64,000 nucleotides of DNA, taken from Antedon mediterranea. Its lineage: Eukaryota > Animalia > Echinodermata. Positions within the stretch are counted from its first letter, which is position 1. Every line of letters begins with the position of its first letter. The translations under genes and the position numbers were made by a program. Of this stretch, positions 3,578 to 43,171 are shown piece after piece. The stretch covers positions 3,715,812 through 3,779,811 of the forward strand of contig NC_092675.1 in the NCBI RefSeq assembly GCF_964355755.1, in the 5' to 3' direction. The notes beneath the pieces are model-generated. The model did not search any database, was not told the origin of the DNA, and saw only the letters and a program-made list of their open reading frames with translations.

Positions 3578-5886
3578 CTATTTATTATTTGTATGCCAAT
3601 CAAGTGCTTCTAATGATTCTTGACCAAGTCTTGGAGTTTGTTTCACATCTTTTGATTGGACGAACAAATTAGAATACTTTATTTTCCAATTGTTTTGGAG
3701 CGCAGGATCTCTAATTAGTCCAAAGTTCTGCTCAAATATTCCTAAACAATTTGACCCCTGATGCAAGGTACCACACACACCAACCATCATCAATCCATGC
3801 TTGTTCATTTTACCTTTAGTTCCGAAGTTTTCTAAGTTTGGATTAAATATCAATAATTCATCCTTTGCTAGGTTTAGTAAACGTTCTGCTACCTGATTAG
3901 CATCTATGTACTCTTCCCTTCTATATTCATCAGCCGTTTTGATTGTTAAAACAAGTTTACAGTCGTACCAGAAATGTTGAGGCCCCCACGGTTCTGACTG
4001 AACTTGACTGCTTTTCGGGTTATTTGAGTTTATCTGCTTGTAAAACCATGAAGCAAATTGTAATGCTAAGTTCTGTTCTTCTGGTACTTTTTCAGGTACT
4101 TTTTCAGGTACTTTTTCAAGCTGAAAAAACTAATGCATTTAACTATTTAACTACTTTTACTTCAAAACTTAAACAATTTTTAATTTTAAGTTACTAGATT
4201 TAAATGTTGTTTCTGTTTCGTTGTTTGCTGCTTTCTGTGCTCGATTTCTGCCTAATTTACACTTTATCAATTTTGTCCCCCTTTTTTTTTTCGTTTACTT
4301 TTTTTACGAAATATTATTATTGCATATAATGTAATAAAAACATATATTTACCCTATATATTTTTTCATAAAATTGTTACTATGTCACTTTATATTATGTT
4401 TCGGGCTTGCCCAACAAAAGTCCTTCTTCATCGGGATCAAGCCTTCTTTCAATGTTATTTTATCATACTATGTATCACCTTTTATTTTGTTACCATGAAA
4501 TTGAAAGTAAATCAATGTTTAAATGCCAATTCCAAAAAAAAAAATGTTTAAATGCAAATTTAATTCCTTCTATTCCTTCTTTTTTCCTTCTAAATTTATA
4601 ATTAATTAATTGTCTGTAGTTAACTGGCTGTAGTTAACTGGCTGTAGTTAACTGGCTGTAGTTAACTGGCTGTAGTTAACTGGCTGTAGTTAACTGTCTG
4701 TAGTTAACTGTCTGTAGTTAACTGTCTGTAGTTAACTGTCTGTAGTTAACTGGCTGTAGTTAACTGGCTGTAGTTAACTGGCTGTAGTTAATTGTCTGTA
4801 GTTAACTGGCTGAAGTTGTTCAGTGAAGTGTAAATTTTTATATCAATATACATATACAATATATAATATATATTTAGGGCTAGTGTTGCCCCGAAAGCTC
4901 TGCAACATATTTATGGCTGTTTTACTTTATCGTTTTGATTTAGCTTTTTGCTTATTTTATTTGTATCTCCATTGAGATCCAGCTACTAATAATACCAACA
5001 TTTTTTCAGTATTTTGCTTTTTGATTTATATATTAATGCAGTATATATAAATAAATAATAATTTTTAAAAGCATGTACAAGTGGCAGTATTAAAAGCAAA
5101 GCGTACAGCCCTAGAAAAAATAATTAAAAAAACTAAGGATACAATATAAAATAAATGAGAGATTAAATTATCTAATAATCATCACAATCTAATTTATGAG
5201 GATGATGTATTACAGTTAATGATATCTAAAATTATGATAAACATTTTTGAAAAGTACACAAATATCATCATCTTGTGTGAAACACAAATGTACACAAAAG
5301 AAAATAAAAATTATACCTTTTCTGGATTGCTTGAGTTTGGGGAATGAAGAATCTTGTCAACCAGATCTGATTTACTAGCACTTCCAGGAAGCGGCACCTT
5401 CTTGTTTGCTAAATATTGGAAAAGGCATGACCGGCTAATTTTCTTGCGGCTAAGTAGCTCAGATGCACTTTCAGTGTAGGTAAGTATTGCATCAATGGTT
5501 TCTGCAAATTTGATTTTAGTGAAATTTAAAACATATGACGTGGCCAGCTTATTATAGTATAATATATGTAATTTCAGACAGGTCAGAAGTTAATTGAATT
5601 AGCCTAATATGATAAACTATGAGCAGGGCAGCTAATTTTGTAAGTCTATAAGCCTAGGCTCTTCTCTAGGCCTATTTGTCCGACCTGACCTGAATTGAAC
5701 TTCCGATCGAACTGCCTCAAAACCGAGTTTGGGGAATTTCCAGCCCGGTACTGCTGCAGCCTTACCTTCCACTGAGTGAGTTTTAATAAGTTTGCTTGTG
5801 ATAGTATCTTTTAACGATATCAATTCTTTCTCCGGCAAAAATTTTAACAAATGTCTGAATTCCTCTTTTTCCTCTTCATTAAGCAT
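3578..5886 (-). CDS. C3orf38: C3orf38 homolog, 282 aa, 3 exons
   Basis: Exons 5886-5766, 5501-5317 and 4120-3578 with GT-AG sites, phases 1 and 0. Motifs [31 protein letters not shown] and HGLMMVGVCGTLHQGSNCLGIFEQNFGLIRDP..NNWKIK match vertebrate C3orf38 as recalled. Confidence 0.88.
4614..4812. repeat. 14-bp tandem repeat (CTGTAGTTAACTG[G/T]), about 14 copies, in C3orf38 intron 2
   Basis: Read directly; G- and T-ending variants occur in blocks. Confidence 0.95.

Positions 5887-11377: not shown

Positions 11378-11401
<24 letters not shown>
10249..11401 (+). mobile_element. 5'-truncated, 5'-inverted L1/Tx1-like LINE fragment with polyA tail and 16-bp TSD
   Basis: Antisense ORF2 piece about 10249-10815. 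Sense piece from about 10816 (DTKL..QFKFIHRII..CSFC..ETLLHMFFEC, zf-RVT-like). AATAAA plus polyA at 11375-11401. TSD AATACATATAGTGTTT at 10233-10248 and 11402-11417. Confidence 0.85.
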
Positions 11402-11408
<7 letters not shown>

Positions 11409-17610: not shown

Positions 17611-19375
17611 TCACAGTAATAAAGTTTATTAGTATATTTTTGTTTATATTATATCTAACAGTACCAACACACACAATAAGAAATTTACGATTCAAATGGC
17701 GATCAAAAGTGGTTAATACCTATTTACAGTATTGATAGCATTACAATACTATTTATGCTTATTCTCCATGGGCCCATAAATGTAACTACTTGCGTTAAAC
17801 CATGGAGGTATGCAAGCATGGTTAAACCAAATAATTTGGAATGTTCCATTCATTGCAAATCAATACATTTGTATAAACGTATATTAAATCTATCAAAATA
17901 GTATTTTTTTAAAGAAAATCGGCCTGTCTTCAACATTATGATGCTATACTCGAGCTGTTCAACCGGTTTTCAGCCATTAAAAACAATTATCGAAAATGCG
18001 AAGCATCCTCGTATTATTGTATGCGGATATATTTCAAGATGGACATGCATTAGACAGTGTATACCACGATCGGAAAACACCCCTATTTGGGGCAAATCGT
18101 TGAACCTAAATTCATTTCAATTGCCAATAACTAATTATCGAACTCAATTTAATTAGTTAACAGGGTTACATCAGGTGGTTAAAATCAGTATCAACTTTAT
18201 ATACCATCGAGTAAACATTCTAGAAATAACGCGCGATTTACCAAACTTTGCCCTTACGTAAATTTATATATAGATGCTTGTGAAGATTGATTACAAACGT
18301 GATTTAAATCGTGACCGTGTAATTCTTAATTGCACACCATGAAAAGATAACCAAAACGATTCCTGGCCATAAGGATATACTCTGAAAAATTTAAGATGAA
18401 ATTTATCTCAAGATAATTGACAGACAAAGTAGTGCTAAGGAAAGAGTAAATGAATAAAGATCCAATACAAAAATTGTACCTAAGTCGAGTCAAAAAACGA
18501 TATTAAATTGTGTACAAGCAACAACTTTGTAACATACACAATCTATTTTTACAAAATTGATCAAAACGATAATTATATAGAAGATTATGGAAGTTATAAT
18601 AATAATAATAACTTTATTGAACATACGCCTTTAAATCGGCGGCACACGTTCTTCTGGACGGTGCGTTCTTACATACATTACATACATAAAGTTAGCCAGA
18701 AGGCTAAATAAAAGTATAAAGAGAAAATAAAAGAAAAAACATTTAAATGAAAGGAAACGAATTGTATAAAAAGAAACTAAAGAGCAAAAAGTACAATACT
18801 TAACTTTGATGGAGTGTTATTATTTATTATTAGTATTATTATCAATGTTATTAATGTTAATTTTAAAGAAAATATTATTAGACCTATTATTAAAAATGTC
18901 ATTTAATTTAAATATTATATTGTTTATTATTATTTAATTATTTATGTTCTTGTTAATACTGTTTATCATTTAATTATGTTATGAGTTATGATCTTTATTT
19001 GTTATTTAGTTAAAGTGGTATTATTTTTATTATTATTTTGATTTTCCTAATTTTAAAATTTAATCTTATTTTTAGTGTTTTATTAACCATTTTACCTCCT
19101 GATTTAATTGTGTTTTTAAAGTTTTGTAAATATAAAGTTAAAGTTTCCATGCATAAGTTAAGTGTTGTTTACAATGATGATACAAAATACAGATATAAAT
19201 AAAAGGCCTAAAATGAACAGAAATTACATTTGCAAAATTAACAAAATACATTATAAAGTTAAACATAAGAAATAAATGAATGACAAGGCATTTTAAAATC
19301 AATTGATACAGTAAAAAAAAAAAAAATAAAAAAAAAAAAAAAAAAAAACAACAACAGCAACAGAAATTTAGTTAG

Positions 19376-22300
19376 TTAGCTGGCACCACCTTGGCCCATC
19401 AGTCTTTCAAGGGCGAGTTGTATAAGACCACCTGTAGCTGTGAGTGCCCTTATGTTTGCATCCCTATCTAAAAAACCTATACTTGCTAACTGTTCTAGTT
19501 GAGTCCGAAATTTAACCTCTGGAGCCTGAAAAGAGAGATTAATTGAACTTTAGTGTTTTTGCATCATGACTACATTCTGAAAATTTTTTTTTTTCTAAAT
19601 TAATTAATTACTTTTCTGTAGCATGTACAAGGGGCATTATAAGCAAAAGATTTAAGCGTACAGCCCTAGAAAAAATAATAATTTTCAAAAGCATGTACAA
19701 GGGGCAGTATTAAAATCAAAGCATACAGCCCTAGAAAAAAATAATTTAAAAAATAAGGATACAATATAAATATAGAGAAAAAAGATAAAATTAATTATCT
19801 AATAATCATAATCTAATTGATGATGATGATGATGATGCATTAGGCCTACAGTTAATGATATCTATAATTATGGTAAACAATTTTGAAAAGTACACAAATA
19901 TCATTATCTTGTGTGAAAAACAAATGTACACAAAAGAAAATAAAAATTATACCACTGCTGGAGATAGAGAATGAGCAAACTTGTCAACCAGATCTGATTT
20001 ACTAGCATTTCCAGGAACCGACACCTTCTTGTTTGCCAAATATTGGAAAAGGCATGACCGACTTATTTTCTTGCGGCTAAGTAGCTCAGCTGCGCTTTCA
20101 GTGTGGTTAAGAATGCTTTCAATTGTTTCTGCAAATTTGATTTTAGTGAAATTTAAAACAAATGCTTATTATAGTATAGTATATGTAATTTCAGACAGGT
20201 CGGAAGTTGGATAAATTAGTCTATTTGATAAACTAAGAGCAAGACAGCTAGCTAAGTTTGTAAGTCTATGCCCCTTCTAAGCATAGTTGTTTGGACTTGA
20301 CCTGGATGGAACCATGGAGGTAGGAGAGAGCTTAAATGCATGTAAGTAAGCAGCGGGTACTGCACCAACAGGATTTTAATTGTTTGTAACTACTGTGTGG
20401 AGTAGCTTTGCATCAGGGTGTGAGTAATTGGTCAGATGTTTTGCCCTACTCTGACGTAATTTTTACTACTAAGTACATTGAGAATATAATACGCAAGTAA
20501 TTCTCGGGTGGGACTCGAACCCACGACCTCCAGATCACTATCCGGCGTTCATACCTCTAGATCACCGAGCTGATGGCTAGAGGTAGATTCGAGTCCAAGC
20601 AGCGGGTACTGCATCAGCAGGATTGTAATTGTTTGTAACTATCAGGTGCTGTGGAGTAGATTTGCGTTAGGGTGTTGAGTAATTTGTCGCAAGTATTCTC
20701 AATGTACTGTACTTAGTATTAGTATAAAGTACAAATTACGTCAGAGTAGGGCAAAACATCATTAAACATTATCAATAATGTTAAAATATGCCTAGGCCTA
20801 ATATGATTATTAATGTATGGCCAGGTAGCGATTTTTTTTTTCGTACATAAGTTGGGGACCCCCTCATGGAACGTCACAAAATAAACATGAATAATTCATC
20901 AGTTAAATGTTCTTGTTCCGTGTGCACCCAAGCGTATAGCAACAAGAAGTGATTACACAAGTGCGGTACGATTCTAGGCCTATCTCCGCTGTTGTTGCGG
21001 CGTGCGATTTCATAGAAGAATAGCGGCGTTTTGTGTGGATTGTCGAAATAATCAGCCTTTAGTTTATGGTGTTTTTAATATAATTTATTACTAAAGAATT
21101 ACGTGTTAAAACTATAGTTTCTATTAATACTATTAGGCCTAATTATTAGTCTCTAAACCCATGTCTATTTTAGTAGTACAGTAGTAGTAGTAGTAGCTGT
21201 GTGACGTGTGTGTGTTAGGTATGACCAAAGATAGTTACACTTACTATCTTTGGTATGACACAATCCGAGTAATAAGTCAGCAAAATTAAACAATAAACAT
21301 TACACAAAAATACATTTTTGATTCTCGTGGGTGAAATCTTCCCATCTCATGTGTTCATATACGCGCATTTTTAAAATTCCTTTGAGTACATGCATATTGT
21401 TTGATAATAAAATAGCAGAATTAAAAAAATACAGTACACAAATTATACACATTCTTTATTCTTGTGGGTCTAAGCTTTCTTTGGGCTATGTCCAATGAAT
21501 TACTACTAGTTTAATGTCTTGCCTAGCTGTCGATTAGCCTCGACTCGACACATTTTGTGTGAAGAAGAGTGCGCGAAGGCAATCACGTGAATTGACTTGG
21601 AATCCTAGGCCTACTGTAGAAAGTATCGTATCGCAGTTGTGTAATCACTTTTTGTTGCTATACGCTTGGGTGCACACGGAACAACAAATTTAACTGATGA
21701 ATTATTCATGTTTATTTTGTGACGTTTCATGAAGGGGTCCCCAACTTATGTACGAAAAAAAAAATCGCGGCCAGGTAGGCAGTTTTATATTTTTAATAAT
21801 AATATGCATACATAACTACGGTACAGTAATTTTATTTATTTATTTGCATTTTTGACTTAGGAAAGAAAAATAATTGTTGCAGGCTTTGCGTTGTTAGGAG
21901 AGTAACACAAACCAATGCCGACAAGAAAGGTAGATTTCAATTACAAATTCAACGTGCCTTCAACATTGACATCAGATCAAATACAATAGCCGGTATCACA
22001 GTCCGATCAAAGATTCCTCCGCGTAGGAATGTCATAAAAGACTCTTATAAGAGGTCAATAACATCATTAACCTCACTTCCGGTCATTTTGGGATAAAATA
22101 TTTCATTACACTTACACCAAATAAAAATATGCATGTTCTGAACAATTTGGGCCTAATCCCAATTTTCTATGATAAGCCATTACCGAGATATGATAAGACC
22201 AGGTCAAAGGTCAAACTGCCAGAAACTGCAGTAGCGAACATTTTTTGACAAAATTTTCTGTTAGAGTAAATAGGAATGTATATATCGTGAACTATTTGAC

Positions 22301-22792
22301 ACCAAAATCAATACTCTACGACAAGCGGTTACAAAGTTATAGACAAATTAAAATGGCAGCCATTTTGGACGCCATCTTGAATTTCTCGGAGAGCACAATG
22401 AGGATTTTTCAGGACTTTTAGTATGATGTTCCAACCATAGTTCTGGACCTTTCCTGAAAAAATTAGCTTGTTACCAGAAATGTCCGGGTCAAACCCTATG
22501 CTCTTGGACTATTATAATAATAAAGACATACGTTACTTTTTCTCTAGATATCATTATACATCATGCGTATAATCTATACACTAATTTTATGAGCATCATG
22601 GCGGACTACAGTACTACTACAAGGTTTATCGAGTTGTTTCGGGAATTTCCCGTCCGGTACTGCTGCCTTACCTTCCACTGAGTGAGTTTTAATAAGCTTG
22701 CTTGTGATAGTATCTTTTAACAATATCAATTCTTTCTCTGGCAAATACCTTAACAAACGTCTGAATTCCTCTTTTTCCTCTTCATTAAGCAT
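19376..22792 (-). CDS. Chimeric ORF: C3orf38 N-terminal domain fused to a ubiquilin-derived UBA domain, 148 aa (expression unproven)
   Basis: Exons 22792-22672, 20128-19953 and 19525-19376. All GT-AG, phases 1 and 0, no internal stops or frameshifts. Exons 1-2 parallel 5886-5317; exon 3 parallels 31159-31016. Confidence 0.7.
20348..20760. repeat. Composite repeat: direct and inverted repeats around a tRNA-like sequence
   Basis: Direct repeats at about 20348-20430 and 20597-20685. Inverted repeats at about 20435-20485 and 20696-20760. Confidence 0.7.
20503..20570 (-). pseudogene. tRNA-derived sequence (possibly Thr-like), probably non-functional
   Basis: Minus strand has acceptor-like CTCGG/CCGAG, T arm GTGGG-TTCGAGT-CCCAC, and an anticodon stem CCGGA/TCTGG with only a 6-nt loop. 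Confidence 0.55.
20828..21768. mobile_element. MULE-like MITE, about 130-bp TIRs, 9-bp TSD
   Basis: TIR starts GCGATTTTTTTTTCGTACATAAGTTGGGGACCCC. TSD GGCCAGGTA at 20819-20827 and 21769-21777. Confidence 0.85.
22030..22511. mobile_element. Non-autonomous DNA element fragment (Academ-like ...CTA end)
   Basis: Interrupts a sequence that is contiguous at about 14245-14365. Contains AAAATGGC.GCCAT motifs like the 23095-28997 TIRs and ends GGACTA. Confidence 0.4.
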
Positions 22793-25700
22793 ATTTTACA
22801 GTCTAAGATAGAAACTATATTTGTTTACAGGAAAATTAAAATACAAAGCCTATCTCGGCCGCTCCTCTTTGTTATGTCATGGAGTAAAGGTTATGTTATG
22901 ATGCTCTAACTGTAACTCTTACTCTAATCAAAGATAGTACTGTATCTTTGCTCTAATGAAAATTACGCCCTCTATATTGGTATGAAATCTTCCTGGTAAG
23001 GAAGAGGGAGTGTGGGAAGATTGCTGAAAGATTCCGTATTTTGATAGCTTCTTAAAAGTACATCAAACAACTGCAAAAGCAGAAAATAGTCAGGTAGTAT
23101 CCCCATTTTACACTTTCTCTGGGAAAAAATTAGAAACAAGTGTTTCTCAACTGATTTGTGTCATTTGGGGTCTATATATCCACCAAAAAAAAGTTCCAGC
23201 TCATCTGGCCTGGGGAAACTTAAGTCACCATTTTGGATTTTTAAAATGGCCGCCATAAATTACATTTGCTCATAACTCAGCTTCTACATCATGTATGGAC
23301 ATGATTTTGGTGGTAAAGTATATGTTTTTAGGGTCAAGGAATCCAAATACAGCATTTTGAAGATTATTCAATGGTCGCCATTTTGTTTTTCAAAATGGTC
23401 GCCATAAAATACAGATTTTCTCATATCTCAGCTTCTACAAATTATATGAATGTGATTTTGGTGGCAAAGTGTATGTTTTGAGGGTCAAGGAATGCAAATA
23501 AATCATTTTTAAGTTCACTAAATGACCGCCATTTTGTTTTTCAACATGGCTGCCATAGCATTTTACAGAATTTTCCACATATCTCAACTTCTATCATCAT
23601 ATCTGATTTTGGTGACTAGGCCTAAGTGTATGGTTACAGAATAAACATTTTCAAAATCTTATACCTTGCCATATTAGAGTTCAAAATGGCCGCCATATTG
23701 TATTGCACAGTATATAGTTTTTGGGTTTCGAAATACAAATACACTATTCTGAAATGTTTTTTTGCACAATTGCTATTTTTTATCTTTAAAAATGGAAATG
23801 GTCATGTAGTCCGTGGATTCATAACATATAGCATTAAAATCCATGTAATTTGAATATCTACAATAAATGACTATAAATGATTATGATTTACTGTATTATA
23901 TCTCTAAAAAAAAAAAATTTATTTATAAAATATCAGAAATTATAATGTTTTTTACTCAAATATGAATGAAAGAAATAAATGTTTATTTGAATTGAATTGA
24001 ATTGAAATGGCCACAATAAACATACAGCTTATTAATTGTCAGCTATCGAGCAATCGTCATCACTTTCCTCGTATGTTCCTTTACCATTAGAGCAGTGACC
24101 ACTGCAATAACCACACACAGCAACACATGCTAAAGAGTACTTTCTACATCTGCATTTGTTTGTGCTGCATAGGTTTCCTCCTTTGCAGTTACAGCATATT
24201 GATTTCAGTAAAGATTGAGGTGCAATATCATCGTCTGTCATGATTGGAGATGATTGTCATCATAAATCCTCCAGCCTCTTTCATCGGGTTTATAGCATTT
24301 GTATTCAAGAGCTTCCATGTAATAACTTGCTGACGAGAGTACTTTATAGTTGAACAATTTTTGGTGGTAGTCTGTCTGGATTTAGTTTACCCTTTGCTGC
24401 ATGTCGCACAAATTAGTCATGTCTTGCCTTGGAAAAGATATCTGGATTCAGACCATGTAATCAGCATAGCCTTAATACCATATTTACTAACATTTTCGAT
24501 GCTTGATAGCAGGTTGGTGAAAATCGTAGGAGGGAATTTCTTCTTGTGAATGTAAATGGTTTAGTGTATCCACATATAGATGATACAGTGTCACATACAG
24601 ACCATGCATAATTAAAAAGAAATTCATCACGGTCAGCGATTAAACCAGTAATAGACGATATGTTAAAGATTCAGCTACTTGTTTGAAAAAAGAGTTTTGG
24701 TTGGATAATGGTAGCATAAAAGAACACATCTGTATCTTCTGCAACAACTACAACCGCATTTGTATCAGAACAATTGGTTTGAGATATAGCTTCTTTAACC
24801 ATTACCGTGTCCGTGTCAGCTTGGATGGTTTTAATACCACATCTTTCCATTTCCTGAGTTGAGAGAGTAATGTTATGAAAGATGCTTTGTTGCAGCCATT
24901 ACGAAGTAATTCCTCTCGTTCTGATGAAACCTTGGTATCTAGAGTAATGTTCACATTACTGCTTGTTTTCTTCTGGAATGTTCTTCGATGATGCTTGTAG
25001 CCTTTGGTTGGCTAGGATATCCATCCCAAACAACTATACACCACCATTAAATTTCCTCTGGAAGAGGCATATGTAGGACATCACAACATCAGAAAAGTAA
25101 CCACTTTATTCCATGGTACTTGGTGTAAGACCAACCACCATCAACAATGTGAACAGATACGGCATCTATTGTGGTGGTGTTGGTAACATTCTCCTTCAGC
25201 ATTCGACCAAATTTTGATTTTTCTGGCTTTAAACAAAGCTGTTGGAACAGGTGTCAGTTCATATCCAAATGCCGTTTCGAAGTCTCCATCTCTTTCAGAG
25301 AGAACAATAAGTCTGTTGAAGAGAACCGTTTTTTCGACAGAAATCTTCTTTGTTCCAACTTTTACATGCTTTTCAAGAGAACTTAGTAGTTTGACTTTCA
25401 TAGGTAAGTGGCATCGTCCAAGCTTTCTTGGATGTCTTGGTCAATTGTTCCAAGCTTGTTCACAACTGGTTTGTGTCGGTTATATTCAATCCAGTTGAGA
25501 GTGAAGCTATCACAAGAGGATCGCTTACCACTATAAATGGTCTTTCTGTAGACGTACTTTCCCGAAATCTTTGTTTACTTCGTTTGTCTCTCTTTAACCG
25601 ACCCTTTCATCCATCATCATTTCCAGATGCTAGAAACCCACACTTTTACTGAATTCGTATGACGAAGTCTGCCACGTGTGAGACCGCCACTTTTATTTGT

Positions 25701-28409: not shown

Positions 28410-29113
28410 TGGTCTCCGGTGTATTTGGTAAACCATCCATTCACGACATAAGACGCTGCTTTAAATGGGATCTCTTTTGTCACAAAAAGCATATATGATG
28501 ATAAAAGCTGAGATATGAACAAAATTCTGTAAATTTTATGGCAGCCATTTTGAAAAACAAAATGGCGACCATAGAGTGAACTAATTTGCATTCATTGACC
28601 CTCAAAACATACATTTTGCCACCAAAATCACATCCATTTATTTTGTAGAAGCTGAGATATGAGAAAATCTGTATTTTATGGCGGCCATTTTGAAAAACAA
28701 AATGGCGGCCATTGAGTGAACTTCAAAATACTGTATTTGGATTCCTTGACCCTAAAAACATATACTTTACCACCAAAATCATGTCTGTACATGATATATA
28801 AGCGGAGTTATGAACAAAAATCTGTAATTTATGGCGGCCATTTTAAAAATCCATAATGGCGACGTTCCCCAGGTCAGATGAGTTGGAACTTTTTTTTGGT
28901 GGATATATAGACCCCAGATGACACAAATCAGTCGAGAAACATTTGTTTCTAATTTTTTCCTAGATTGGCCCTTTTTAGACTTAATTTAGGGATACTAAGG
29001 TTTTTTGTTCGCCTATTTAGAGTCTGATTTTATTAATCTTCATTTTTTTTCATGTTTTGGGGGAACATCTTTAAAGTATGTATATAAAATTTAGTCCACA
29101 TGTGGTAGCTTAA

Positions 29114-29446: not shown

Positions 29447-30253
29447 TTAAGTTCAGTTTTTAACCTTTGCAATCTTAGGTCAACATCCTTTAATAAATGT
29501 CTTGTTTTTATGATTATTTTTCTCATTCTAAAATAAATTATTTAACATTAGATAACTGTAGTAGTTGTCGCTAAAATAAAAAGTAAGTTTTTTTATGTTG
29601 TTTATAATTTTTTAAATACAAGAGCTGTACATGCTTATATATTCATTTTTTCACTCCACGATAAAACAAAGTCATCAATGTGTTCTTCAATAAACTACAA
29701 GTAAACATGTTTTCCTAATATTGTATTTTTTTTTTTTTTTTTAGTATGTAGGGGAAATTCAATGATTTGTGTTGGTAATTTATATGTTTGCAATATCAAA
29801 TATACATATGCAACAATTAACAGTATAACCTTAATATTTAATATTGTAACTAGCATATTGTTTTTAATCTATCAATATTGTGTGTATTACAATATACAAA
29901 GTACTTTTTGTGATAAAACATTTAATAAGGGTAGAATAATTGTATTTATTTAAATTCTAAGATTATTTTAAAGTCAAGAAAAGCAATAGTCTTATTATAC
30001 TTATAGATACTATAGTATAAGATGGATTTGATTAGGTAAGGAGTTGTTCAATAAATACACAACAACAAAAAGACAAATACACAACCTGCCACCATCAATA
30101 AAAATTGTGCACATAGGGGGTTGGGAAATCCTCAACATTAATCCACACTTGTGGAACAAGGAATTCTTAAAAGAACACAGTGTGGCCTAGAAAATGGTCT
30201 ACTGTACGGAAACAGGCAACAGTCATGTCAACAATCACAGTGAGTGCGGCCTA

Positions 30254-31015: not shown

Positions 31016-34000
31016 TTAGCTGGCGCCACCTATCAGTCTTTCAATGGCGGCATTTACATCACCATTTGTAGCCGTGAGTGCTCTTATGTTTGCATCCCTA
31101 TCTACAAAACCCATAGTTGCTAATTGTTCTAGTTGCGTCCGAAATTGAACCTCTGGAGCCTGAAAAGAGAGATTAATTGAACTTTAGTGTTTTTACATCA
31201 TGACTACATTTGTTAGTAGAAAACACCCCCACTACATATTAAATATTTGCTATATGCATAAAATGTCTGTCCTAAAACTTCTGCCCAGTTCTCTAACAAG
31301 ATTTACTGGAATCAATTGCAAGAGAGCTGACTTATTTCCTAAAACTTACTGCCCCTAACCCAAAAACTAAGGACTCTGGGCTCCAGTTCTATAAGGTGAA
31401 GTTCAACGATTCAACCAAAGAACTGGCTTGCTAAAAACTGTTGACCTTTAAGCTTATATAAGCCTAAAAGTTCCTAAGTTGTCCTATAACTAAAGTCATG
31501 CATTATTCATTCCTTAACACATTAGGAAAAAAATAAAGTTATCCCTGTTCTTACCTGAACTGTATTTGCACCTGTAGATAATGACTGCATCATTGTTGAC
31601 ATCATTTGAGACCACTGATCTGCATTGGGTGCTGAGCCTGTAACGGTGGGGGCTGTTGATGGTGTGCTACTTGTAGTTGTACTTGTTGTCGATACATTTG
31701 CTGTACTAAGTGTTGGCATTGTCCCAGTCAATCTAACAAAACAAAATACTGTACATTATATATATTTTAAACAAGACTGGGTGATGTTACACTAGATATT
31801 AGTGGGTGTGTCTGCTTTATTTAATTAATAATTTGTTTGTTATTATTTAAATATACCTGACGACCTCTTCAGTCCAGAGGTTGTGATGTACAAGTGCACA
31901 CGAGCTAGATTTTGTGACTATCATTTAGCATATGTACTTACTCTAGGGTATAATCCCTTTATTTGATTATGATGGAAAAATAACTGTATACAAGTGTACT
32001 GTATATAACATTGGTTTAAAAAGATAACGACAAAGACGAGCAGTCTGTTGTTACTATTTTCAAACACCTTATACTTTTTTTATGTTTCACACATTTATTC
32101 ACAATTACATTTACAATATTTAATAGTATACCAAAAGAAGAGAGTGCTCGTCAGTTTGGTAACCATTATTTAAATGCATTTAAAGGTACGGTACATACAA
32201 CATTCAACACAAATTATGTAAAAAAAGTAAAAACATTGGTCGCCTGCGACCGGTCAGCACCTCCGGTGACGTACATAAGCGCGACCACCAACCAAAGTGA
32301 CCACCACAGGTGAGGTATAAAAGGGAAAAAAAACAGGATGAACACTGTTTTTCCCCTGGAAGCACTATACCGATCATAAGCGACTCAGTAGGCATATAAT
32401 AGGCAGGGCTCGATTTAGTGCTAGCCCGGCGTACAATGGCTAGTAAAAACAGCTCCGGGCTACCTAAAGTATCTTCCTTTAAGCCCGGATGGCTAGTAGG
32501 TTGTGGGAACTCGAAATTGGGACGAAATGACCTCATAAAAATAACTCCAGCATAAAAGACATATGTCTTGGCAACATCAGCAAAAAAAACCACTCGCGCG
32601 CTGCTGTGGCCATAACAAGTGATGATGTAGGCGGAGCCTCTCATAATCAAGCCAATTTCCCGAATTATGATTGGCCATTTATGTTTTTGTCACCCAGGTT
32701 ATTGTGAAGTAGGCAGAGCTTCATTATCAGGTCAAACATGTCACAAAAATATGACCATAAATAACAAACTGTGATTGGCCAAATGTAGTAGAATTTTGTC
32801 AATGTTAAAAATACTCGTCTAGTCTTGTCAGGCCTGGTTGTCACAGATCAAAGCTAGGGATATTTTGTAGGGCCGGGTGGCTGGCTCTATCCCTGTAGGT
32901 AGGCCATGGAGGCCATATTTTATAATATGCGTAAGAGGCCTAGATAGAATCAAAAGCCATCGTTTGGCATCGTGATGGCTGCTCAGCAGCTAGATACTAC
33001 CATTTTGGTAACAGTAGGCCAGGTGCTCCAATGCGATCTAGGCCTAGGCCCTAGGCTAGGTCTATCCTAGCTACCCTACTATAATAATAGGCTCTAGGCT
33101 AGGCCTAGCCTAAGGTAGACAGAATCTAATTAGTTTTCTTGGCTAGGTTGAAGCCCAACAACAAAAGACCTCAATAAATCGATTCTGTGAATATGGTGAG
33201 CATGAAATAGACTGTGCGTCGCGACGCAAAGTTAATTTTTATAATGTGAACAATAAAGAAATACAATTTTGTGTAATTTTTCATGCAATAATAGTTTAAT
33301 ACAGTATGTATGTAAATGTGTAGCAATTCTCGAACATTTAGATTAGTGCGCCCTCTATTGAACAAAATGCCTGAATTCATTTATATGGCAGCCCTGCTGC
33401 AGCTATCACGGTGCGATAATAAGAGTGGGCTAGTAAAATAATGTATGGGCTAGTGAAATCTACAGTGAACTAGCCCAGTGGGCTAGCAACATGAAAAAGA
33501 TAAATCGAGCCCTGATAGGCCTAATGTTTTTGTTTAGTTTCTCCTCTTTTTTTAGTATGTACTCAATATCATTTCTTTAGTTTCTTTTTTAACAGAGTAT
33601 TGGGATTTTAATCTATTTGTTTTATAGAGCGAGTTCCAAACATTTGGTATGTACATTTTCTTTGAATTTCAAAGGTTTTTTGGGTGTTCACTTTTTTTAC
33701 TTACCCAGGTAAGAGGCCTGGTGCTTCTTGTTGTAGCTGTTGCATTCCCTGTTGTATCTGCATGATTGCCTGTACGGCTCTTGGATTTGTCATAGCCGAC
33801 TGCATCTCAGGGTTTTGCATCTTTTAAAAAATAATAAAACATCATATCATACTATAGTGCATAGTTCTTAAAAAATGTTCCATAAGGATTTTAAATCATG
33901 CAATATTTATTAACATATTAAATTATCATTTAAACATGTAATGTACATAAATTTGGTATTTTTTTAAATCCCTGTGTTGCCTTTCTCAATTCTGTTCTAC

Positions 34001-37000
34001 ATGCATTCAAATACTCATCAACCATGCTGTTATAATCGTTCAGACATAGACATATTTTACTCTGTCTAACTAGTACTGCTTGATGAAAATATAAGTACCT
34101 GCTGTAGGAATGTTGGCATCATCTGCTGCATCTGTTCTTGAAGTTGAGAATTTCCAGCAAACATTGGATTAGACGCTAATACCTAGTGTAGTAGAAAGAA
34201 ATATCTTTTGATTTGAAATTACTGGTAATTTAAACTTTGATTCTTATTTACCTTTAGTCAATCGTCTAGAAATTTATTTACTTCACTATACTGTAGACAC
34301 TCTCATTAAGACAAGGAGACACATATGTTCTAACACTACGGCTAACCCCTATTCAGGGGAAACCTTCTTAAAGGGAAACTTTAGTGCTAACCTGTGAAGC
34401 AAGCTGAGGGTTTTGACTCATGTTTTGCATCATGCTTCTCATGTACGGAGCCTGCATCATGTTCTGCATCAGCTGTGGATTGGCCGACATCTGCTGCATC
34501 ATACTTTGCATTCCAGGACTGTTAAAGATACCTGTAGACAAGGAAATAAATACAGCTGTTAATAATCGAATCAGAGTTGTTAGCCTATGGATCACAGGTG
34601 TTAAATGATGGATCACAGGTGTTAAACTGATGAATCACAAGTGTTAACTGGTTGATGACAAGTGCTATCTGGTGGATCACAGGTGTTAACTGATGGATCA
34701 CAGGTGTTAAATGATGGATCACAGTTGTTAACTGGTTGATGACAAGTGCTATCTGGTGGATCACGGTGTTATCTCTTGGGTCACAGGTGTTAACTGATGG
34801 ATCACAGGTGTTAACTGGTGGATCACATTTGTTAGCCTATGGATGATAAGTGCTATCTCTTGGGTCACAGGTGTTAACTGATGGATCACAGTTGTTAACT
34901 GGTGGATGACAAGTGCTATCTGGTAGATCACCGGTGTTAACTGATGAATCACAGGTGTTAACTGATGAATCAGATTGTTTTAAATAATATAAATATTGTA
35001 TATAGTAATAATGTTATTAATATACAAATGTACTTATATTATTTCCATTTTAATTGGCAAAATAAAATTGAATCTTGAATTGAATCTTGAATCTTAACTG
35101 ATGGATCACATTTGTTAGCTTATGGATCACAGATGCTAACTGACGGATCACATGTGTTATTACTGGTGAATCACAGTTACTAACATGTGGTTAACAGGTG
35201 TTAGCGGGTGAATCAAAGACAGGTGAATCCCAAGTGTTACCACATGTGGATATCATCAAATATGTAATCTCAGATGTTATTACCTGGTCCAGGTTGAACC
35301 CCACTTAAATTAGGTGTTGTGGATGCTGTAGATGTTGTCGTTGACGGTGTACTTGATGCAGTAGTAGTAGTTGTAGCAGTTGATGGTGTTGACCTTGCAC
35401 TGGGTGTACCCCATGGATTAGGTAGAGGTTCTGAGTTTTCCCTACCCTGTTGCGAGGCACTGCCACTAGATGAAGCTTTAAAAAAATACAAATAAAATAC
35501 ATTACATAAACTTTCAATCTTGGATATTAAATATGTGACAAAATGACATTAATGTTAAAATAGTGTTCATTATGGTGTGCATCGGTGACCATTCATCAAA
35601 TACGTCTCTGTGGGCACAGGAATAAAATAACATTTTGCAAAAATAACTGTTACTTACTATTACCACTAAGAGCTGCAAATGGGTTGCCTCCAAGCTGTTC
35701 TTGAGCTGCATTCATCATTGGTTCTTGTATATCTGTATACATTCTCCGTAGGGCATTGTAGCCTCCTGGGATACTCTGCAATCAAACAAATAAACAGTTG
35801 AATATGGGTGATATCCTTTCAAAATATAGCAAAATATATTTAGATGTAAGTAATCATTGGGTATAACTTTATTATTATTTCATGAGCAATTTAATGTTAA
35901 GATTATTTAAATAGATTTCATAATTGATAATGTGACATACTTCTAGATTGCTTAGAGCTCTATCTTGGCTTCTCATCATCTCCTGCATCATAGATGGGTT
36001 ACGTGCTAGTTCCATGGTTTGACGCAGTAACTCTGGGTTATTTAACATGTGGGACAATTCAGGATTCCTCTGTAAAACAAAATCATAGTTATATTATTAT
36101 AATAATAATATCCTGATTTATATAGCGCCTAATGTTGTGAAACCTCTAAGCGCTGAACATTATTACCCCAGTCATTTTTTTGGATCAAACACGCATGGGA
36201 ACATACTCCCATAAGGCAGCTAGTAATCAGCGCAAAGTTGTGTCTTGATCTAACCAGATTCCCATATTATTCATCCAACACACTGCGCCACACGCAGATT
36301 GTGATGTGTCAAAATATGGTATTGATATACCCAAATATGGTTGTAGTTTATTTAAGATTAAGAGTTATTAACGCGTATTACGTAATGATGCATTGTGTTT
36401 ATATGTATCAGATTAAGAACGTACGCTGTTGTTGGTCGTGTGCGCTGTATTTAAACAAGTCAAAATAGTGTTCTCATAGGTGTTATGCATATTATTAGTG
36501 AATGTATTATTAAGTTAATTAGAATGTTATATGTCTGTTTGTTTCAGGTTTTTCATGTAAATAAAGCATTTCTTTACAATACAAAAAGCCAAGAAAACTC
36601 ATTTGTTTTCACAATTCACATTCTCCCACAGTAGTGATATGACATCATCATGTCCATATATGGGCACATCACATTTTTTTGTCACATAAAGTTTGATAGT
36701 GTAGACAGAGCTTTACTAACTTCCATCAATTGTTGCATTTGAGGATTACTCATCAACATTTGTCTTAACATCTCTGGATTCTGCATCATATTCTGTACTA
36801 ATGGATTCTCCATAACCTGTTGCAACATCTCTGGATTATTCAACAGCTAAAAATAACACAAAATATTAAAAGATGTGGTATAACGTTTTCACATTAAACG
36901 CCACGATAGCGCTAGAACCACTCACATCGTCTAGAAACTCCGGAGAGATCCCATTTACATTAAACCCTGCACAACCGAGTTTGCAATAAAAAAAAAAGCT

Positions 37001-40000
37001 TAAATACTGCCCTGTATCCTGCTATGGATGATGAATACAATACAATTGGAGTGAGTGGCCAAGAGGTTAATAATAATAATATTTATTCAGCAAAAGTTCT
37101 TAAAAGTATGTTTTACATTTCATCTTGCCAGGAAAAAGTAATAGGCATGAGCCCAAACAGAAAACTGTTTTGACTCCATCATTATTATAAAATACAAAAA
37201 AAAAACAAAAACTAAGTAGTACAAAATTAAATTAAAAAAATACACCAATTAAGAATAATCTGCATTGAATAAACTTAAAATAATTTAATATTTTGAGATC
37301 AAAGGATTAGTGAGTTGGGCTTTAAAGTTGTAGCACATTGTCTAATTGCATTGTTAAGATAGCGGAACAATAATTATGTAGCCATAACATGGGTAAGGGT
37401 TTGAGGTTTACTCACTCCATGGTTCTGGTGGTAAAACGAGTCTTCTCGGATAAGGACTATAAACCGTAGGTCCAGTGTACACATCTGCCTCATGTGCACT
37501 TTAAAGAACCTAGTACATCTTTCGAGACAAGTAGGGGGTTACCCCAGTGTACTAGTTCACACACATCATGGAGGATTTTTCTATGGTTATATAAATATAC
37601 AAGTGAGTGAGTAGCCGAGAGGTTAAGACAGTGGAACCGTAATACGTTGCCATAACATCGGCAAGGGTTCAAGACTCACACGCACCATGGTTCTGGTCTT
37701 CTGGGATAAACTTTAGGTCCAGTGTACACATCTGCACTCATTTAGAGTCGATTTAATATTTACCTGGCTTTGCATCTGTTGTTGCATTTCCATAAAATTA
37801 GCTGATCCTAGGCCCATTCCTCCAAGGCCACTGAGTCCACCCAGCCCACTTCCAAATGGGTTTTGTTGTGCTTGAATAGGAGGTGGGGCTGCAGTAGTGG
37901 TTGATGATGATGATTGAGAAGATTGTTGTGCATGTTGAGCTGCTTGTTCTTGAGCCTATTAAAAAGGGTAAAAAAACATTTTTTACATTTATACTAACAT
38001 TTTAATTTATTTCATTTTATTTCCACCAAGTAAACTTCTGTAAAATATCTACTTTCAATTGGAGATATAAATAAACGTAACTGATTTTTCAAAACAATAC
38101 ATAAAATATTTTTATTCAGTTTGTTTTTTGTTTGTATGAAGTTTTCTTGTTTTATAACGCACCTTTCCGGAAAAAATTGTTATAGTAACTGTACACCTCA
38201 GTGATATTATTAATCAGGGATTTGAATGTATGGTGTATTTAGCAAGAGATTTTAACACAAATTTGAAATTGCAACCTCAAGTTAAAAAATCATGTTCTAA
38301 TTATTTTTAATACAGATTATTTATCATTGCCAAAACTGATCTGTATGTTAGTATAACATTACTGGTACCAGTTTTTATTCAGGTTAAATGTAACCAAATG
38401 GTACAGTACCAGCATATCATAATAATTTGCAATTACTGATGACCTTCAATGTTACCTCAAAGCTTGGTTCCCACTAGAACGCAACACAAACACGTAAGCG
38501 CAACGCAAGTAATTTTACCAATCATGACGCCATAGATCATCTAAACTGTTGCTTGTGATTGGTCATTACGTAGAGCTACGTCCTTACATTGCGTTCTATT
38601 TGGAACCAACCTTACGAATTTTCATATAAACTATTGTTATTTAAGGGCTATGTCCACAACTCAATACATCTAACTCAACATTTTAGTCTTTATATATATA
38701 TATATATTGTATTGATATTTATTACTGTTATGTGTTTTCCTGTATTTTAAGTGTAATAAGCATCAAGGAAAACAAATTTTATGTTCGCCTTGTTGTGGTC
38801 ATGACCATAAAGTTTTATCTTATCTTATGTAACCATTGGAATTATTCTTATGGTAAATTGAGTGGAGCTGTAGCTTGGTGGTTAACGTGCTTGCCTTCCA
38901 ATCCCAAGGTCCCGGGTTCAATCCTGACCTAGTGCAGGGTTGTAACTCATGACTCTTTCACCTCCACTCCCTAAGCCTCAAATGAGACTTAGTTTAAAAG
39001 CACGATAAATTATTAAATAGTTTATCCATCCTGTAATTGGCGAGTTACTCGCTGTTGGATGAGTATGAATAAAAAAAAAAAAAAAAAAAAAAATTTAAAT
39101 ACAGTATTAGATGTGACACTGGACACGGTAACATAATTTCCTTATACAGTATAATCTAGATACAGAAGGGAAAATAGATTACAATTGACAAATAACCAGG
39201 TTATGTTAGTTGGTTTGAATTTCCCTATAGTCTGAATGTCTACTAAACATAGATAGAGCTTACTTTGTTGGCAGATCTTATGACTAAATGAACTGTTAAT
39301 CCATCCTTGATTCCTGTAAAAACAATGACAAATAAATAAATATAAAGAATATAGCACACCATGATATACAATGGAAAGTACATAATTATATAAACCAGTT
39401 TATGGTTATGACTACATTCCATGTAGAGGACATCTTGAAAACACCTCAACGATTTGATTTTATTCGGTTTCAACATAAGATTACAAGACAATATGAATAC
39501 AAACAATTTACAAGCAAATACATTAAATAAGAAACCAGGATAGCTCATGAAGTTGAAAGAAAAATCAACTTAATTCCAATGGAGTCCAATGGTCTTGGAC
39601 TCTTTAAACTTCTAACCTGAGTCCAATTTTTAAGTATCATGCTCTCTTGCTTCTATATATAAATTTACGTAAGGGCAAAATTCGGTTAAACGCGCGTTAT
39701 TTCTAGAATGTTTACTCGATGGTATATAAAGTTGGTTAGAATCTGGGTTCTGATTTTAACCACCTGATGTATCCCTGTTTACTAATTAAATTTAGTTAGA
39801 TAATTAGTTATTGACAATTAAAACGAATTTAGGTTCACCAATTTGCCCCAAATAGGGGTGTTTTCCGATTTTGGTATACACTGTCTAATGGATGTCCTCT
39901 TGAAAAATACCTGCACACAATAATACGAGGATGCTTCGCATTTTCCTATCTCCTCCTACGATAATTGTTTTTAATAGCTGAAAACCGGTTGAACAGCTCG

Positions 40001-43000
40001 AGTACAGTCATAATGTTGAAGACAGGCTGATTTTCTTTAAAAAATACTATTTTCATAGATTTAATATACGTTTATACAAATGTAATGATTTGCGATTAAT
40101 GGAACATTCCAGTTTATAGGTAAATTTATGAGCCCTTGGTTTAACACAAGAAGGTAAATTTATGGGCCCTTGGAGAATAAACTTAAAACTGAGATATAGT
40201 ATTGCAATACTTTGACAATATTGTAAATACTACATATTAACATATTGGGTAGGCTCTACTGCTGGATATATAAACGCATAATATACAAATAAAAACTTTA
40301 TTACTAACCGTTGCTTCTCAACGTTTGTATTAATTAATAATTATAAAAAATATAAACGTCGTAGTGGTGTATCGTTAAATTTCATTTTAATATATATTTA
40401 TTTATTTATTTTACTATTTCAATCGACTATAACAGGGACAGTTTTAAAAAAGTATTAAATCGTAAATGTTTATTGTGTTTAGTGGCCAGTATATTATTGA
40501 TAGGCCTATAAAACATTTAAAACAATATTTCGTTACTGAGTGGATAAAGAATATATTTAAAAATTGTTCTTCCCATCCTCTTCCCCATCCCTCAACTCTA
40601 ATGTTATATACAAAAAACAAATTGGGTTTGTTTAAAATGAGTTCAAATAAAAAATTTGGACTCATTTTTAAGACAAGTTTCTCCTTCGGAAGTAGGCCTC
40701 ATTCCCAGGGTGCTAATTCTAGTTGACTACATTAATCATCGTGTCTATTTATTCGTTTCTGAAAACGACAATGTATTTATAGTCCAGTTTTTTTACGCTG
40801 AAATTACTGTGTATTCAAGAACCATCTGTGGACACGACCTAGCTAGGCTCGCACTGGCCGATCGCCAAGTCGCCATGGGCGAAAACGTTTCTAGATTGGC
40901 GAAAAATAAAACGGCTACTTTAGCCATTTTGGCGATGACATATGATAAAATAGATAATTAAATAATCATTTTGGCGAAAGCATAAAGTCCAACTAAAAGG
41001 TCCATTTGTCGATCTCCAAGCATTTATTTTGTTCGTTATCACGTTGTTTACTTCAAGCTCCATTTTTCGTCAACTTGTTTCGTTGTACCAGGCGTCTCTT
41101 TGTTATTTCAAAAAGGTGGATAGCAGAAGTAGACTGCACAGCAGAGAGACAGACGTTACACGACACATGGATGATGAAGTCTACAAAAACTATCACGTGT
41201 TGTGCGCTGCACAAACGATCGACTACGTAGCCGACGGTCGGCTAATTACCGGGATTGTCTATTTTTCGATAGGGGTGTACTTTTCAGATTAAAAAGAAAC
41301 ATAGTATCTTCGATGAATGACGTCTTAATCTTATCGAAATCAAAAATGTATGCGTTATGCATTTTAGAGTCTTCCAATTTAATGTAGTTTCATATTTTAG
41401 CCTTAATAAACTTCCTTCGTGCGTCAGTGTAAACAAAACAACATGCGGGAAATGGTAGAGTCTAACGGGGATTTAGCTAAACACACACGTGCATCTGAGC
41501 GGGGCCGGCCGCCGGCTTCTGTGTTGTTGTGTAAATAAATAATAATCGGATAAATTTCTCGCCCTGACAGAAACGCTTCGGCGCAGCCTTGAGGGATGGA
41601 AAGACGTGTACTCTGTGCTTTGGCCTATATTATCTTACGTTTAACAACGATACGAGTGTTCGTTTGCTAGGAATTTTCCTTAATATTTTTAGCATACGAT
41701 ATACCGTTGCGTTGTTGTACATAATTTTGTAGGCCTAGGCCGGCGGTTCTGCACTTTCGCACCTCTTGAGCATACCCAATTTAAAAACATTAACCCGCTG
41801 CGCGACGGTGATTCTGAGTGATTCTAGGACACGATTTTCGCCTGGTACGCCATGGAAGCCGTCACACGCAAACATGACCAGCCAAGCATAAAAAACAAAA
41901 GTAACATAGCGTTCAGGGGATTTCAGAAAACTGTAAAATGTTTCTTATTAAATTGATAACTGTATAAATGCTGTATGATTAAAAACAATTTGATCATGTA
42001 AAAAAAATACAAAAACAAATTTTTTTATAATCATACAGTGATTTAGGCATGTTTCTTTATCTCAATGCCTTACAAAAATGTTCAGGGAACAGTGTATAGA
42101 CCTGTTGACATAGATAAATTGACTAAAATGTTTTTACCACTATATTTCAAACATTTTAAATTTTGGCTATAAACCGATTCATTTGGCTAAATAAAAAAAT
42201 TTGACTTTAGCCATTTTGGCTATAGATAAACTGATTTGACTAAAAAAAATATTTTGACTTTCGCCAAATGGCTAAACAAAAAGAAATGTTAGTGCTACCC
42301 CAGCCTAGATGGTACGCGAGCGAAGCAAGCGTACCATCTAGTTAAAAATAATTTAGTAAATGCCATATTGAAAAAGATAAAAGAAAATACATATCAAAAT
42401 GAATGTGAAATGTATTATCTTAATAAAGATCAGTTATAAAAAATGTTTATACCATGCTTTGCTATTGTATCTGTATCCTTCAAAATTTTTCCAGCAAAAA
42501 TTAAACACAGTTGGTCTACTGAGGTGTTGTTAAATTTCTTGGATACTTCATCTTTGAACTGCAAAAACAAAAAATCAATTAATCAAAATATATATATATT
42601 CATTATGTTATACTCAGATTTGCAAATAGAGAACGGTTCTGATTGCTAATACGGATAGGCTGCCTAGCCAAACTAAATAGCAATACAACTTCTTCAGAAT
42701 TCATAAAAGAAATACCGATTCATTTGTTGAATGATGATGACCGGGTGGTTGTTAAAAATGTTGGCGGCATCATGACTTTTTTTTTGTTGCCCATTATTAC
42801 TAACCTTTGGCTAATAAAGCTAGGCCTAAGCAGTGTTTTTTGTAGGGTAAGAGTTTTACGGTCATGTGAGGACCAATCACAATGGCCATCTGAGTTAGCC
42901 TTTAGCTTTGCAGCCCATATCTGCTGGGTCTTGCAGGGGACAGGCCGCTACGCTACTGCCACACCACAGCCTTCTTGCCTCGTTTTAGTTAGGCCTAGCC

Positions 43001-43171
43001 TAGCCTAGATAGTCATATTGTACATTATGCACATACTATTGATTCGAAATTAACCTAAATAGTTACCTCTTTTACGGTGGCCGTTTCATCAACCTCTACT
43101 GTGTGTTTTTCTTTGGGAGTTTTCACCACAACTTCGATTTTTTTTGTCGCTTCCTCACCTTGATCGGCCAT
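31016..43171 (-). CDS. UBQLN1: Ubiquilin (UBL - STI1 repeats - UBA), about 559 aa, 13 exons
   Basis: Exons 43171-43067, 42558-42453, 39313-39264, 37955-37764, 36846-36721, 36069-35941, 35775-35658, 35475-35284, 34531-34392, 34182-34099, 33820-33705, 31732-31555 and 31159-31016; all GT-AG and phase-consistent. Motifs [59 protein letters not shown] and [29 protein letters not shown]. Confidence 0.95.
32404..33514. mobile_element. hAT-like non-autonomous element with 5-bp TSD (ubiquilin intron 11)
   Basis: TIR CAGGGCTCGATTTA / TAAATCGAGCCCTG. TSD ATAGG at 32399-32403 and 33515-33519. GGCTAG subterminal repeats. Confidence 0.8.
34575..35250. repeat. 21-bp minisatellite (GATGGATCACAGGTGTTAACT-like) in ubiquilin intron 8
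   Basis: Degenerate tandem array in two blocks, about 34575-34975 and 35093-35250. Confidence 0.9.
36095..36290 (-). mobile_element. SINE 3' tail fragment
   Basis: The minus strand ends AGCGCTTAGAG...GGCGCTATATAAAT followed by ATT repeats, a typical L2-type SINE tail. Confidence 0.5.
37048..37740 (+). mobile_element. Two tRNA-headed SINE copies with a Deu/Nin-like core; the first is interrupted at about 37072-37352
   Basis: Heads GAGTGAGT[G/A]GCC.AGAGGTTAA at 37049 and 37605. Core GTCTTCTCGGATAAGGACTATAAACCGTAGGTCC...GCACTTTAAAGAACC. Confidence 0.65.
38862..39092 (+). mobile_element. tRNA-derived SINE with polyA tail
   Basis: A box TAGCTTGGTGG, B box GGTTCAATCC, polyA at about 39072-39093. 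Reverse-complement copies at about 55527-55664 and 55746-55798. Confidence 0.75.
39652..42341 (+). mobile_element. Non-autonomous Helitron-like element in ubiquilin intron 2
   Basis: 5' TCTATATATAAAT. 3' hairpin CTAGATGGTACGC..GCGTACCATCTAG ending CTAG|T. No TSD. Second copy at 14833-18274. Confidence 0.75.
40843..42303. mobile_element. hAT-like element with 5-bp TSD nested in the Helitron
   Basis: Imperfect TIR CTAGGCTCGCACT / AGTGCTACCCCAG. TSD CCTAG at 40838-40842 and 42304-42308. The empty site is present in the other Helitron copy (about 14833-14850, reverse strand). Confidence 0.8.

Follow-up and report, generated by a model that had tools for sequence, protein, structure and literature searches.

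A candidate chimeric gene combining parts of C3orf38 and ubiquilin in the crinoid Antedon mediterranea

The locus described here raises the question of whether copies of the first exons of one gene, lying in frame with a copy of the UBA exon of another, constitute a young protein-coding gene or only the scar of a duplication. The window in which this locus is found, viz. the entire stretch of 64,000 nucleotides of Antedon mediterranea DNA that was analysed, also contains both of the parent genes. The first of these, a ubiquilin of 559 aa in 12 coding blocks (31016..43171, minus strand), was located by tblastn of P0015 and is represented by a spliced contig in run X1; its UBA exon (31159-31016, 144 nt) is 100% identical to the A. 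mediterranea protein named ubiquilin-1-like. The second, a C3orf38 homologue (DUF4518) of 285 aa (3578..5886, minus strand) with exons at 5886-5766, 5501-5317 (185 nt) and 4129-3578, is represented in X1 by a spliced contig of 958 nt, the loose end of which shows the 4129 acceptor. The candidate chimeric gene (22792-19376, minus strand) lies between these two genes, on the same strand. The explanation that we prefer, and to which we give about an even chance of being correct, is that it encodes a young, translated protein of 148 residues and two domains, in which the UBA face has probably been retuned by selection from ordinary ubiquitin binding.

Structure of the locus and its origin

Three minus-strand exons, with an ATG and with GT/AG at both introns, provide a frame of 148 codons plus a stop (447 nt), in agreement with the original prediction of a chimeric 148-aa gene made from the N-terminal exons of C3orf38 and a UBA exon with all four splice sites canonical. 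Exon 1 (22672..22792, minus strand; 121 nt) is a copy of C3orf38 exon 1 with the ATG at 22792, and it supplies 40 codons plus 1 nt (DUF4518 positions 1-39). It is followed by an intron 1 (20129..22671, minus strand) of 2543 nt, as compared to 264 nt in the parent, which has been enlarged by high-copy repeats, one of them an inverted-repeat element at about 20821-21775. Exon 2 (19953..20128, minus strand; 176 nt), a copy of C3orf38 exon 2 covering DUF4518 positions 42-92, is 9 nt shorter than that of the parent and has a rewritten 3' end, where alignments with two gaps (7 mismatches), as compensating frameshifts would leave them, are only slightly better than that with a single 9-nt gap (9 mismatches). 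The hybrid intron 2 (19526..19952, minus strand; 427 nt) consists of C3orf38 intron 2 on its 5' side and of the final 51 nt of the last ubiquilin intron on its 3' side. Exon 3 (19376..19525, minus strand; 150 nt), the duplicate of the ubiquilin UBA exon, is 6 nt longer than the original and ends with the stop codon at 19378-19376. The growth of intron 1 and the two length differences in the exons had been noted before and are confirmed here, the latter from the exon coordinates. An upstream block with a CCAAT-like box (22949..22986, minus strand), which is 36/38 identical to the parental 6009-5972, has been retained as was predicted, and it is a candidate promoter element derived from C3orf38. 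The earlier count of four amino acid changes in exon 1 was also as stated; however, the degree of conservation was overstated, as exon 2 shows 10 differences up to codon 92, with its final few codons rewritten, and the UBA exon shows 11 differences in 43 codons.

Self-comparison of the window identifies the source of both parts of the chimera. The upstream block, exon 1, the intron ends, exon 2 and 330 nt of intron 2, which make up its 5' part, come from C3orf38, whereas 51 nt of intron, the UBA exon and the 3' untranslated region, which make up its 3' part, come from ubiquilin. A further block (29672-29863 and 12836-13027) is common to both intergenic stretches. Homology to the last ubiquilin intron stops at 19576 and that to C3orf38 intron 2 starts at 19620, both of these introns being of phase 0, which bears out the junction that had been proposed earlier. 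The 43 nt of the junction itself (19577..19619, minus strand) are unlike either parent and terminate with TTTCAG, a cryptic acceptor; splicing at this site would append 8 codons followed by a stop. The 3' end of one parent, the chimera and the other parent thus follow each other in the same orientation, the sequence on either side of the junction is duplicated, and the in-frame join leaves the start, the stop and the splice sites intact. This arrangement is that of a single tandem duplication from the last intron of ubiquilin to the second intron of C3orf38; retroposition is ruled out, as the introns are retained. In Anneissia japonica homologues of both parents have close accession numbers and agree in the length of the longest contig, and due to this the two genes were likely neighbours before the duplication. 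The route of origin is an ordinary one, known for chimeric genes from tandem duplications. In Drosophila yakuba, chimeric genes have arisen via tandem duplications across gene boundaries (PMC5460883), and like the present locus they unite the 5' end of a gene with the 3' end of the adjacent one, with both parents left intact and the promoter coming from the 5' donor. The crinoid copy differs from these in its greater age, with about 10-15% neutral divergence from its parents, in that phase-0 introns connect two complete domains, and in being known from DNA.

An artefact of the assembly is ruled out by a 419-nt contig that bridges the junction (19531-19949) with 0 differences in 3/3 of the DNA-like runs of sample S2 that were compared, although the assembly may have been made from S2 itself, in which case this contig checks the assembly and not the population. 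In run X1, which comes from another sample (S1) and another study, a 468-nt contig matches the duplicate UBA exon and is gapless over the 6-nt insertion, but differs from the window copy at 8 of 203 letters. The S1 copy joins directly to 18591 and is therefore without the 782-nt repeat insertion which in the window (18592..19373, no strand assigned) begins 2 nt past the stop of the chimera, and which has a flanking 5-nt direct repeat and a terminal poly(A) signal plus (TTA)n; beyond it the duplicated 3' untranslated region of ubiquilin continues (18482..18591, minus strand), matching 30919-31008. Since the X1 contig carries the duplicate UBA exon, the duplication is common to two samples, and it is still varying.

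The C3orf38-derived half and possible constraint on the frame

The domain organization of C3orf38 was examined in a structure model made on its sea-urchin homologue P0001 and not on the chimera, in which a disordered linker separates a confidently modelled N-domain from a C-domain. The C-domain, i.e. the half that the chimera has lost, is NTF2-like in this model (Z 10.3, rmsd 2.9 and 104 residues aligned to Nxt1/p15), as the original prediction had surmised. Residues 1-97 of the sea-urchin homologue are modelled to fold alone as six helices (pLDDT 92.6), and chimera exons 1-2 encode the whole of this domain, matching profile positions 1-92 with E values of 1.8e-14 (exon 2) and 1.8e-4 (exon 1). 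Based on this model, the break of the duplication respects a domain boundary. The chimera therefore shares with the C3orf38/DUF4518 family (PF15008) the N-terminal helical domain, whereas a UBA domain stands in place of the NTF2-like half (profile positions 129-270), which is encoded only in exon 3 of the parent.

When the N-domain was used for a structural search, 30 of the best 50 rows were death-fold chains by title, including all of the top 6, and in a second structural look the top 12 rows were death-fold chains with the same leader, viz. the AIM2 PYD (Z 6.1, rmsd 2.9, 76 residues aligned; death-fold identity 5-17%). Six helices in about 95 residues, as seen in the sea-urchin model, are also a feature of the death-fold superfamily (PYD, DED, DD, CARD). 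However, a Z of 6 is under the tool's reliable level for helical bundles and within reach of common helical arrangements. Foldseek gave no match for the N-domain at E 0.001 and ranked DEK first at E 0.12, with DEK not being in the best 50 rows after realignment; Pfam shows weak SAP/HeH matches for the second half of the domain, and the best E value of the N-domain profile against PDB sequences was 0.18. Due to the middling Z, the weak preference for DEK and the SAP/HeH hints, the death-fold assignment is only a lead, and the N-domain is predicted to be a self-contained six-helix bundle and is possibly a death-fold-like interaction module. A more far-reaching proposal, according to which this half of C3orf38 is an unrecognised death-fold-like domain, now part of a newborn death-fold-UBA adaptor whose face was positively selected to a new ligand, with variants segregating and the parents at hand as controls, is in our view quite improbable.

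The N-domain also occurs elsewhere without the NTF2 half, as a tandem pair in Mobula (a ray) and with an unrelated tail in Mixophyes (a frog). Among the 38 representatives matched by exon 2, none has a UBA alongside the C3orf38 N-domain. When exon 2 was compared with longer proteins, one of the 14 candidates matched, and this fragment of 145 aa lacks a UBA; as the C3orf38 parent of the window was also missed, the absence of the chimera here carries no weight. The pairing of the C3orf38 N-domain with a UBA appears new, not being present in the 38 relatives checked. In searches of the open-licence literature, no paper was found that describes the fusion or interprets C3orf38 as having a death fold; further, among the matches listed there, none on C3orf38 was structural by title and none on crinoid genomes dealt with the locus by title.

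In a neutral-decay simulation using the intron indel spectrum, the frame, ATG and splice sites survived in 0.5-8% of runs (6 settings), a result which is suggestive only, since the locus was picked for its intact frame and this inflates the survival P. It accords with the earlier proposal of some constraint on the frame. The homologous flanks carry 28 indels per 781 aligned nt, of which 23 are not multiples of 3, so that the many flanking indels described previously are also real; neutral divergence amounts to 77/781 aligned sites in non-coding DNA and 13.7/89.9 silent sites. An alternative explanation of the locus is that the copy is a decaying duplicate, i.e. a non-functional by-product that was never translated or is no longer so, with the frame open by chance and the changes in the UBA due to one or two local mutational bursts. 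The low survival of the frame under neutrality argues against this explanation, whereas it is favoured by the pairwise dN/dS of 0.59 over all 134 codons (P 0.12 vs 1), a value close to the expectation for one neutral and one constrained branch. In the comparison of dN/dS with the parents, which the original prediction had put forward as a check, the N-domain shows a value of 0.37 (Fisher P 0.019) and the UBA one of 1.25; all of these pairwise values mix the duplicate and parent branches. With Anneissia as the outgroup, the duplicate accounts for 6 of the 13 differences in N-domain codons 1-91 and the parent for 3, the other 4 being ambiguous. The dN/dS on the duplicate branch is then 0.30-1.02, depending on calibration, and due to this, purifying selection on the N-domain of the duplicate is possible. 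Conserved columns of the N-domain are kept in the chimera in 20 of 22 cases, the two losses being in accord with decay. The parent N-domain has also changed, at 4 positions, and identity to Anneissia is 49/96 for the chimera vs 51/96 for the parent.

Changes on the binding face of the UBA domain

By substitution counts the UBA is the fastest-changing part of the chimera, which the original prediction had overlooked. In comparison with the Anneissia outgroup, 10 of its 11 amino acid differences are derived in the duplicate, and the G32 of the duplicate is the ancestral state. Nine of the 10 derived codons (12/13 nucleotide changes) fall in codons 15-19 and 34-43, which make up 15 of the 43 codons. 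For this face region, which was drawn on published boundaries after the changes were seen and in which the numbers are small, the P value of the clustering is 0.0006 by codon and 0.02 when the helix-3 cluster is counted as one event. The N:S ratio is 12:0 in the face codons and 1:4 elsewhere (Fisher P 0.002-0.005), the remaining 28 codons having 1 replacement and all 4 silent changes, and codons 6-14 and 20-31 showing no amino acid change with 4 silent ones. Under the most conservative calibration, change on the face is in excess of the neutral rate when nucleotides are counted (P 0.007) and no longer so when codons are counted (P 0.08), and the replacement excess of the UBA as a whole (P 0.17-0.72) is not significant if the duplicate bears most of the neutral change.

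The loop and helix 3 of the UBA constitute its ubiquitin-binding patch, as described in PMC3240630, and M342, L365 and L369 of Dsk2 are the key hydrophobic contacts (PMC13232801). In an equal-length alignment these three map to UBA positions 16, 39 and 43, all of which are changed in the duplicate (M16I, I39L, I43M) and all of which are still hydrophobic; the helix-3 contact positions are accordingly L39, L42 and M43, two of them changed. In UBQLN1, F559, N577 and E581 are at a ligand interface (preprint 10.1101/2022.09.29.510132), and the equivalent of N577 is also changed in the duplicate; the equivalent of F559, mutation of which abolishes ubiquitin binding according to PMC4942676, is intact. 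Of the sites that have changed, M16, V19, D34, A37 and I39 are invariant in 19/19 homologues, and V35 and N36 in 18/19, and altogether 7/30 conserved UBA positions are lost. The MGF loop reads IGF both in the window and in S1. Further, the Pfam UBA score of the duplicate, at 19.2 bits, is under the gathering cut-off of 22.4, the parent scoring 34.4. Relative to the ubiquilin/Dsk2-type UBA (PDB 2JY5, 2JY6, 1WR1; PF00627), of which it is a direct exon copy, the domain has kept G-F in the loop and E-R-L where helix 3 ends (G17, F18, E40, R41 and L42); however, the M of MGF is replaced by I, six more conserved positions are changed, and there are no UBL or STI1 domains.

The earlier proposal of a ubiquitin adaptor is weakened by the lost conserved positions, the low Pfam score and the location of the changes on the binding face. 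If the protein were such an ordinary adaptor, it would bind ubiquitin much like ubiquilin does, and the UBA changes would be the tolerated drift of a low-affinity domain. The five retained residues, the hydrophobic nature of the three changed contacts, the match to the UBQLN1 UBA at E 2.5e-13, the ancestral state of G32 and the intact F559 equivalent are all compatible with this. However, the sites that changed are invariant or nearly so among the homologues, and tolerance would not focus replacements on the face above the neutral rate (P <=0.007 by nucleotide, <=0.08 by codon), so that we consider an ordinary adaptor to be very improbable.

The same changes bear on the explanation by decay. 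The loss of 7/30 conserved UBA positions, the score below the Pfam cut-off, the 8/203 differences between the copies of two individuals and the repeat inserted 2 nt past the stop are all in keeping with a decaying duplicate, and new chimeras of this kind are mostly rare and harmful (PMC5460883). Against it, helices 1-2 have been spared and the replacements are mostly hydrophobic-to-hydrophobic. The pattern is one that is predicted by a kept fold with a remodelled face and not by uniform decay. Further, at no fewer than 3 sites, one of them inside the helix-3 cluster, the parental base has been retained in S1, which shares other changes with the window, and due to this the changes in the cluster were likely acquired stepwise. 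Among the 8 differences between S1 and the window, 4 are listed, of which 3 are replacements, one of them (D22E) in helix 2; these replacements are a sign of loose constraint, and from the same differences we infer a proline at S1 codon 37. Judged from the substitution pattern, the binding surface of the UBA was probably reshaped by selection.

Possible transcription and significance of the chimera

Run X1 is only guessed to be RNA and is available as assembled contigs, and in these both parents occur in spliced form. The duplicate UBA exon is covered by a single X1 contig, which continues past the 19525 acceptor into the 51 nt of intron and is thus unspliced there; this is again in accord with decay. 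The final 167 nt of this contig have no alignment within 18400-20340; they may derive from the parent intron via the shared 51 nt, from a different junction in S1 or from cryptic splicing at 19577. On chimera exons 1-2 there is no X1 contig except that of the parent, and the 19525-19953 join is absent among the joins listed (93 or 80% likeness). However, assembled contigs drop rare variants beside a parent at 140-fold, and due to this the absence of the chimera join is evidence neither way. Taking all of these observations together with those described above, decay of a non-functional duplicate is somewhat unlikely.

The copied exons could also be used in alternative splicing of the parents. 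Ubiquilin would then have the UBA copy as an alternative last exon, joined from 31555 to 19525, and C3orf38 would have exons 1-2 as alternative first exons, joined from 19953 to 4129. The pieces are on the same strand and in the right gene order with all four joins in phase 0, and such usage would explain the open frame in each piece as well as a ubiquilin isoform with a variant UBA. However, it requires either read-through past the 3' end of ubiquilin (about 12 kb) or that a strong acceptor close by be passed over (about 16 kb), and in the spliced X1 contigs of the parents each exon is joined to the adjacent one of the same gene. This explanation is thus highly unlikely.

In our preferred explanation, viz. 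that of a young translated gene, the tandem duplication would have fused the promoter and N-domain exons of C3orf38 in frame with a copy of the ubiquilin UBA exon. The copied promoter would drive a three-exon message in which 19953 is spliced to 19525, and the resulting protein would retain the partner binding of the N-domain next to a UBA that, as suggested by the map of substitutions, binds ubiquitin more weakly or binds a different ligand. Alongside full-length C3orf38, such a protein may serve as a small adaptor or as a decoy, with the altered UBA replacing the NTF2-like domain. The intact frame, the clustering on the UBA face, the dN/dS of the N-domain, the break at a domain boundary and the presence in a second sample were counted in favour of this explanation, and the unspliced X1 contig, the overall dN/dS of 0.59 and the replacements in S1 were counted against it.

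Most of the known examples of young chimeric genes come from flies, plants and mammals. If the gene described here is silent, then it is an ordinary duplication scar. As a chimera lying between its intact parents, with change on one binding surface, it makes the path of a UBA away from ubiquitin binding testable residue by residue. It also offers a way into the function of C3orf38, a gene conserved in animals, which can be viewed as a six-helix (possibly death-fold-like) module plus an NTF2-like module, with the first half being reused alone in other animals.

Mobile-element-like sequences around the chimera

The 782-nt sequence at positions 18592-19373, flanked by a 5-nt target duplication and carrying a poly(A) signal and a (TTA)n end, is a polymorphic retroelement-like insertion, which is present in sample S2 (a sample with DNA-like runs that may be the assembly's own source) but not in the contig from S1, the sample of the probable RNA run X1. 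Two long inverted repeats (viz. 23118-23616 and 28479-28964), which are 87-94% complementary and lie about 5 kb apart, are possibly the two ends of one DNA transposon. Such an element would have inserted 330 nt ahead of the start codon (ATG) of the chimera, immediately beyond the conserved upstream block. Further, a LINE remnant is found at 10147-11403, where a zf-RVT match (10789-11214, forward strand) is followed by a poly(A) run. The open frame adjoining this match (10147-10725, reverse strand), for which a search for Pfam matches found none, may represent an inverted 5' part of the LINE.

Genes and minisatellites of the window

A gene of the fatty-acid hydroxylase/sterol desaturase family (PF04116, E 1.5e-27) is present at 55858-58057 on the forward strand. 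The Pro/Tyr/Gly-rich exons at 1609-2768 (forward strand), convergent with C3orf38, show a weak Spaetzle match (E 0.002) that is under the cut-off. Minisatellites are seen within C3orf38 intron 2 (4561-4859, 14-nt unit) and within a ubiquilin intron (34559-35160, 21-nt unit). At exon 3 of the parent C3orf38 gene, a pair of acceptors in the same frame is separated by 9 nt (4120-4129); that at 4129 is used in the X1 contig, and the C3orf38 product is then 285 residues long.

Predicted fold and possible reuse of the C3orf38 N-domain

The C3orf38 family is conserved and uncharacterised. Based on the structural model of P0001, the sea-urchin homologue, residues 1-97 of C3orf38 homologues (exons 5886-5317 in the window) are predicted to form a six-helix bundle, and in this model the bundle matches death folds best among known structures, with Z reaching 6.1. 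This modelled fold holds whether or not the chimera is a live gene. In predicted gene models, viz. P0039 and P0040 (Mobula), P0063 (Mixophyes) and P0038, C3orf38 N-domains occur alone or as tandem repeats, without the NTF2-like half, and these arrangements suggest that this module has been reused repeatedly among animals.
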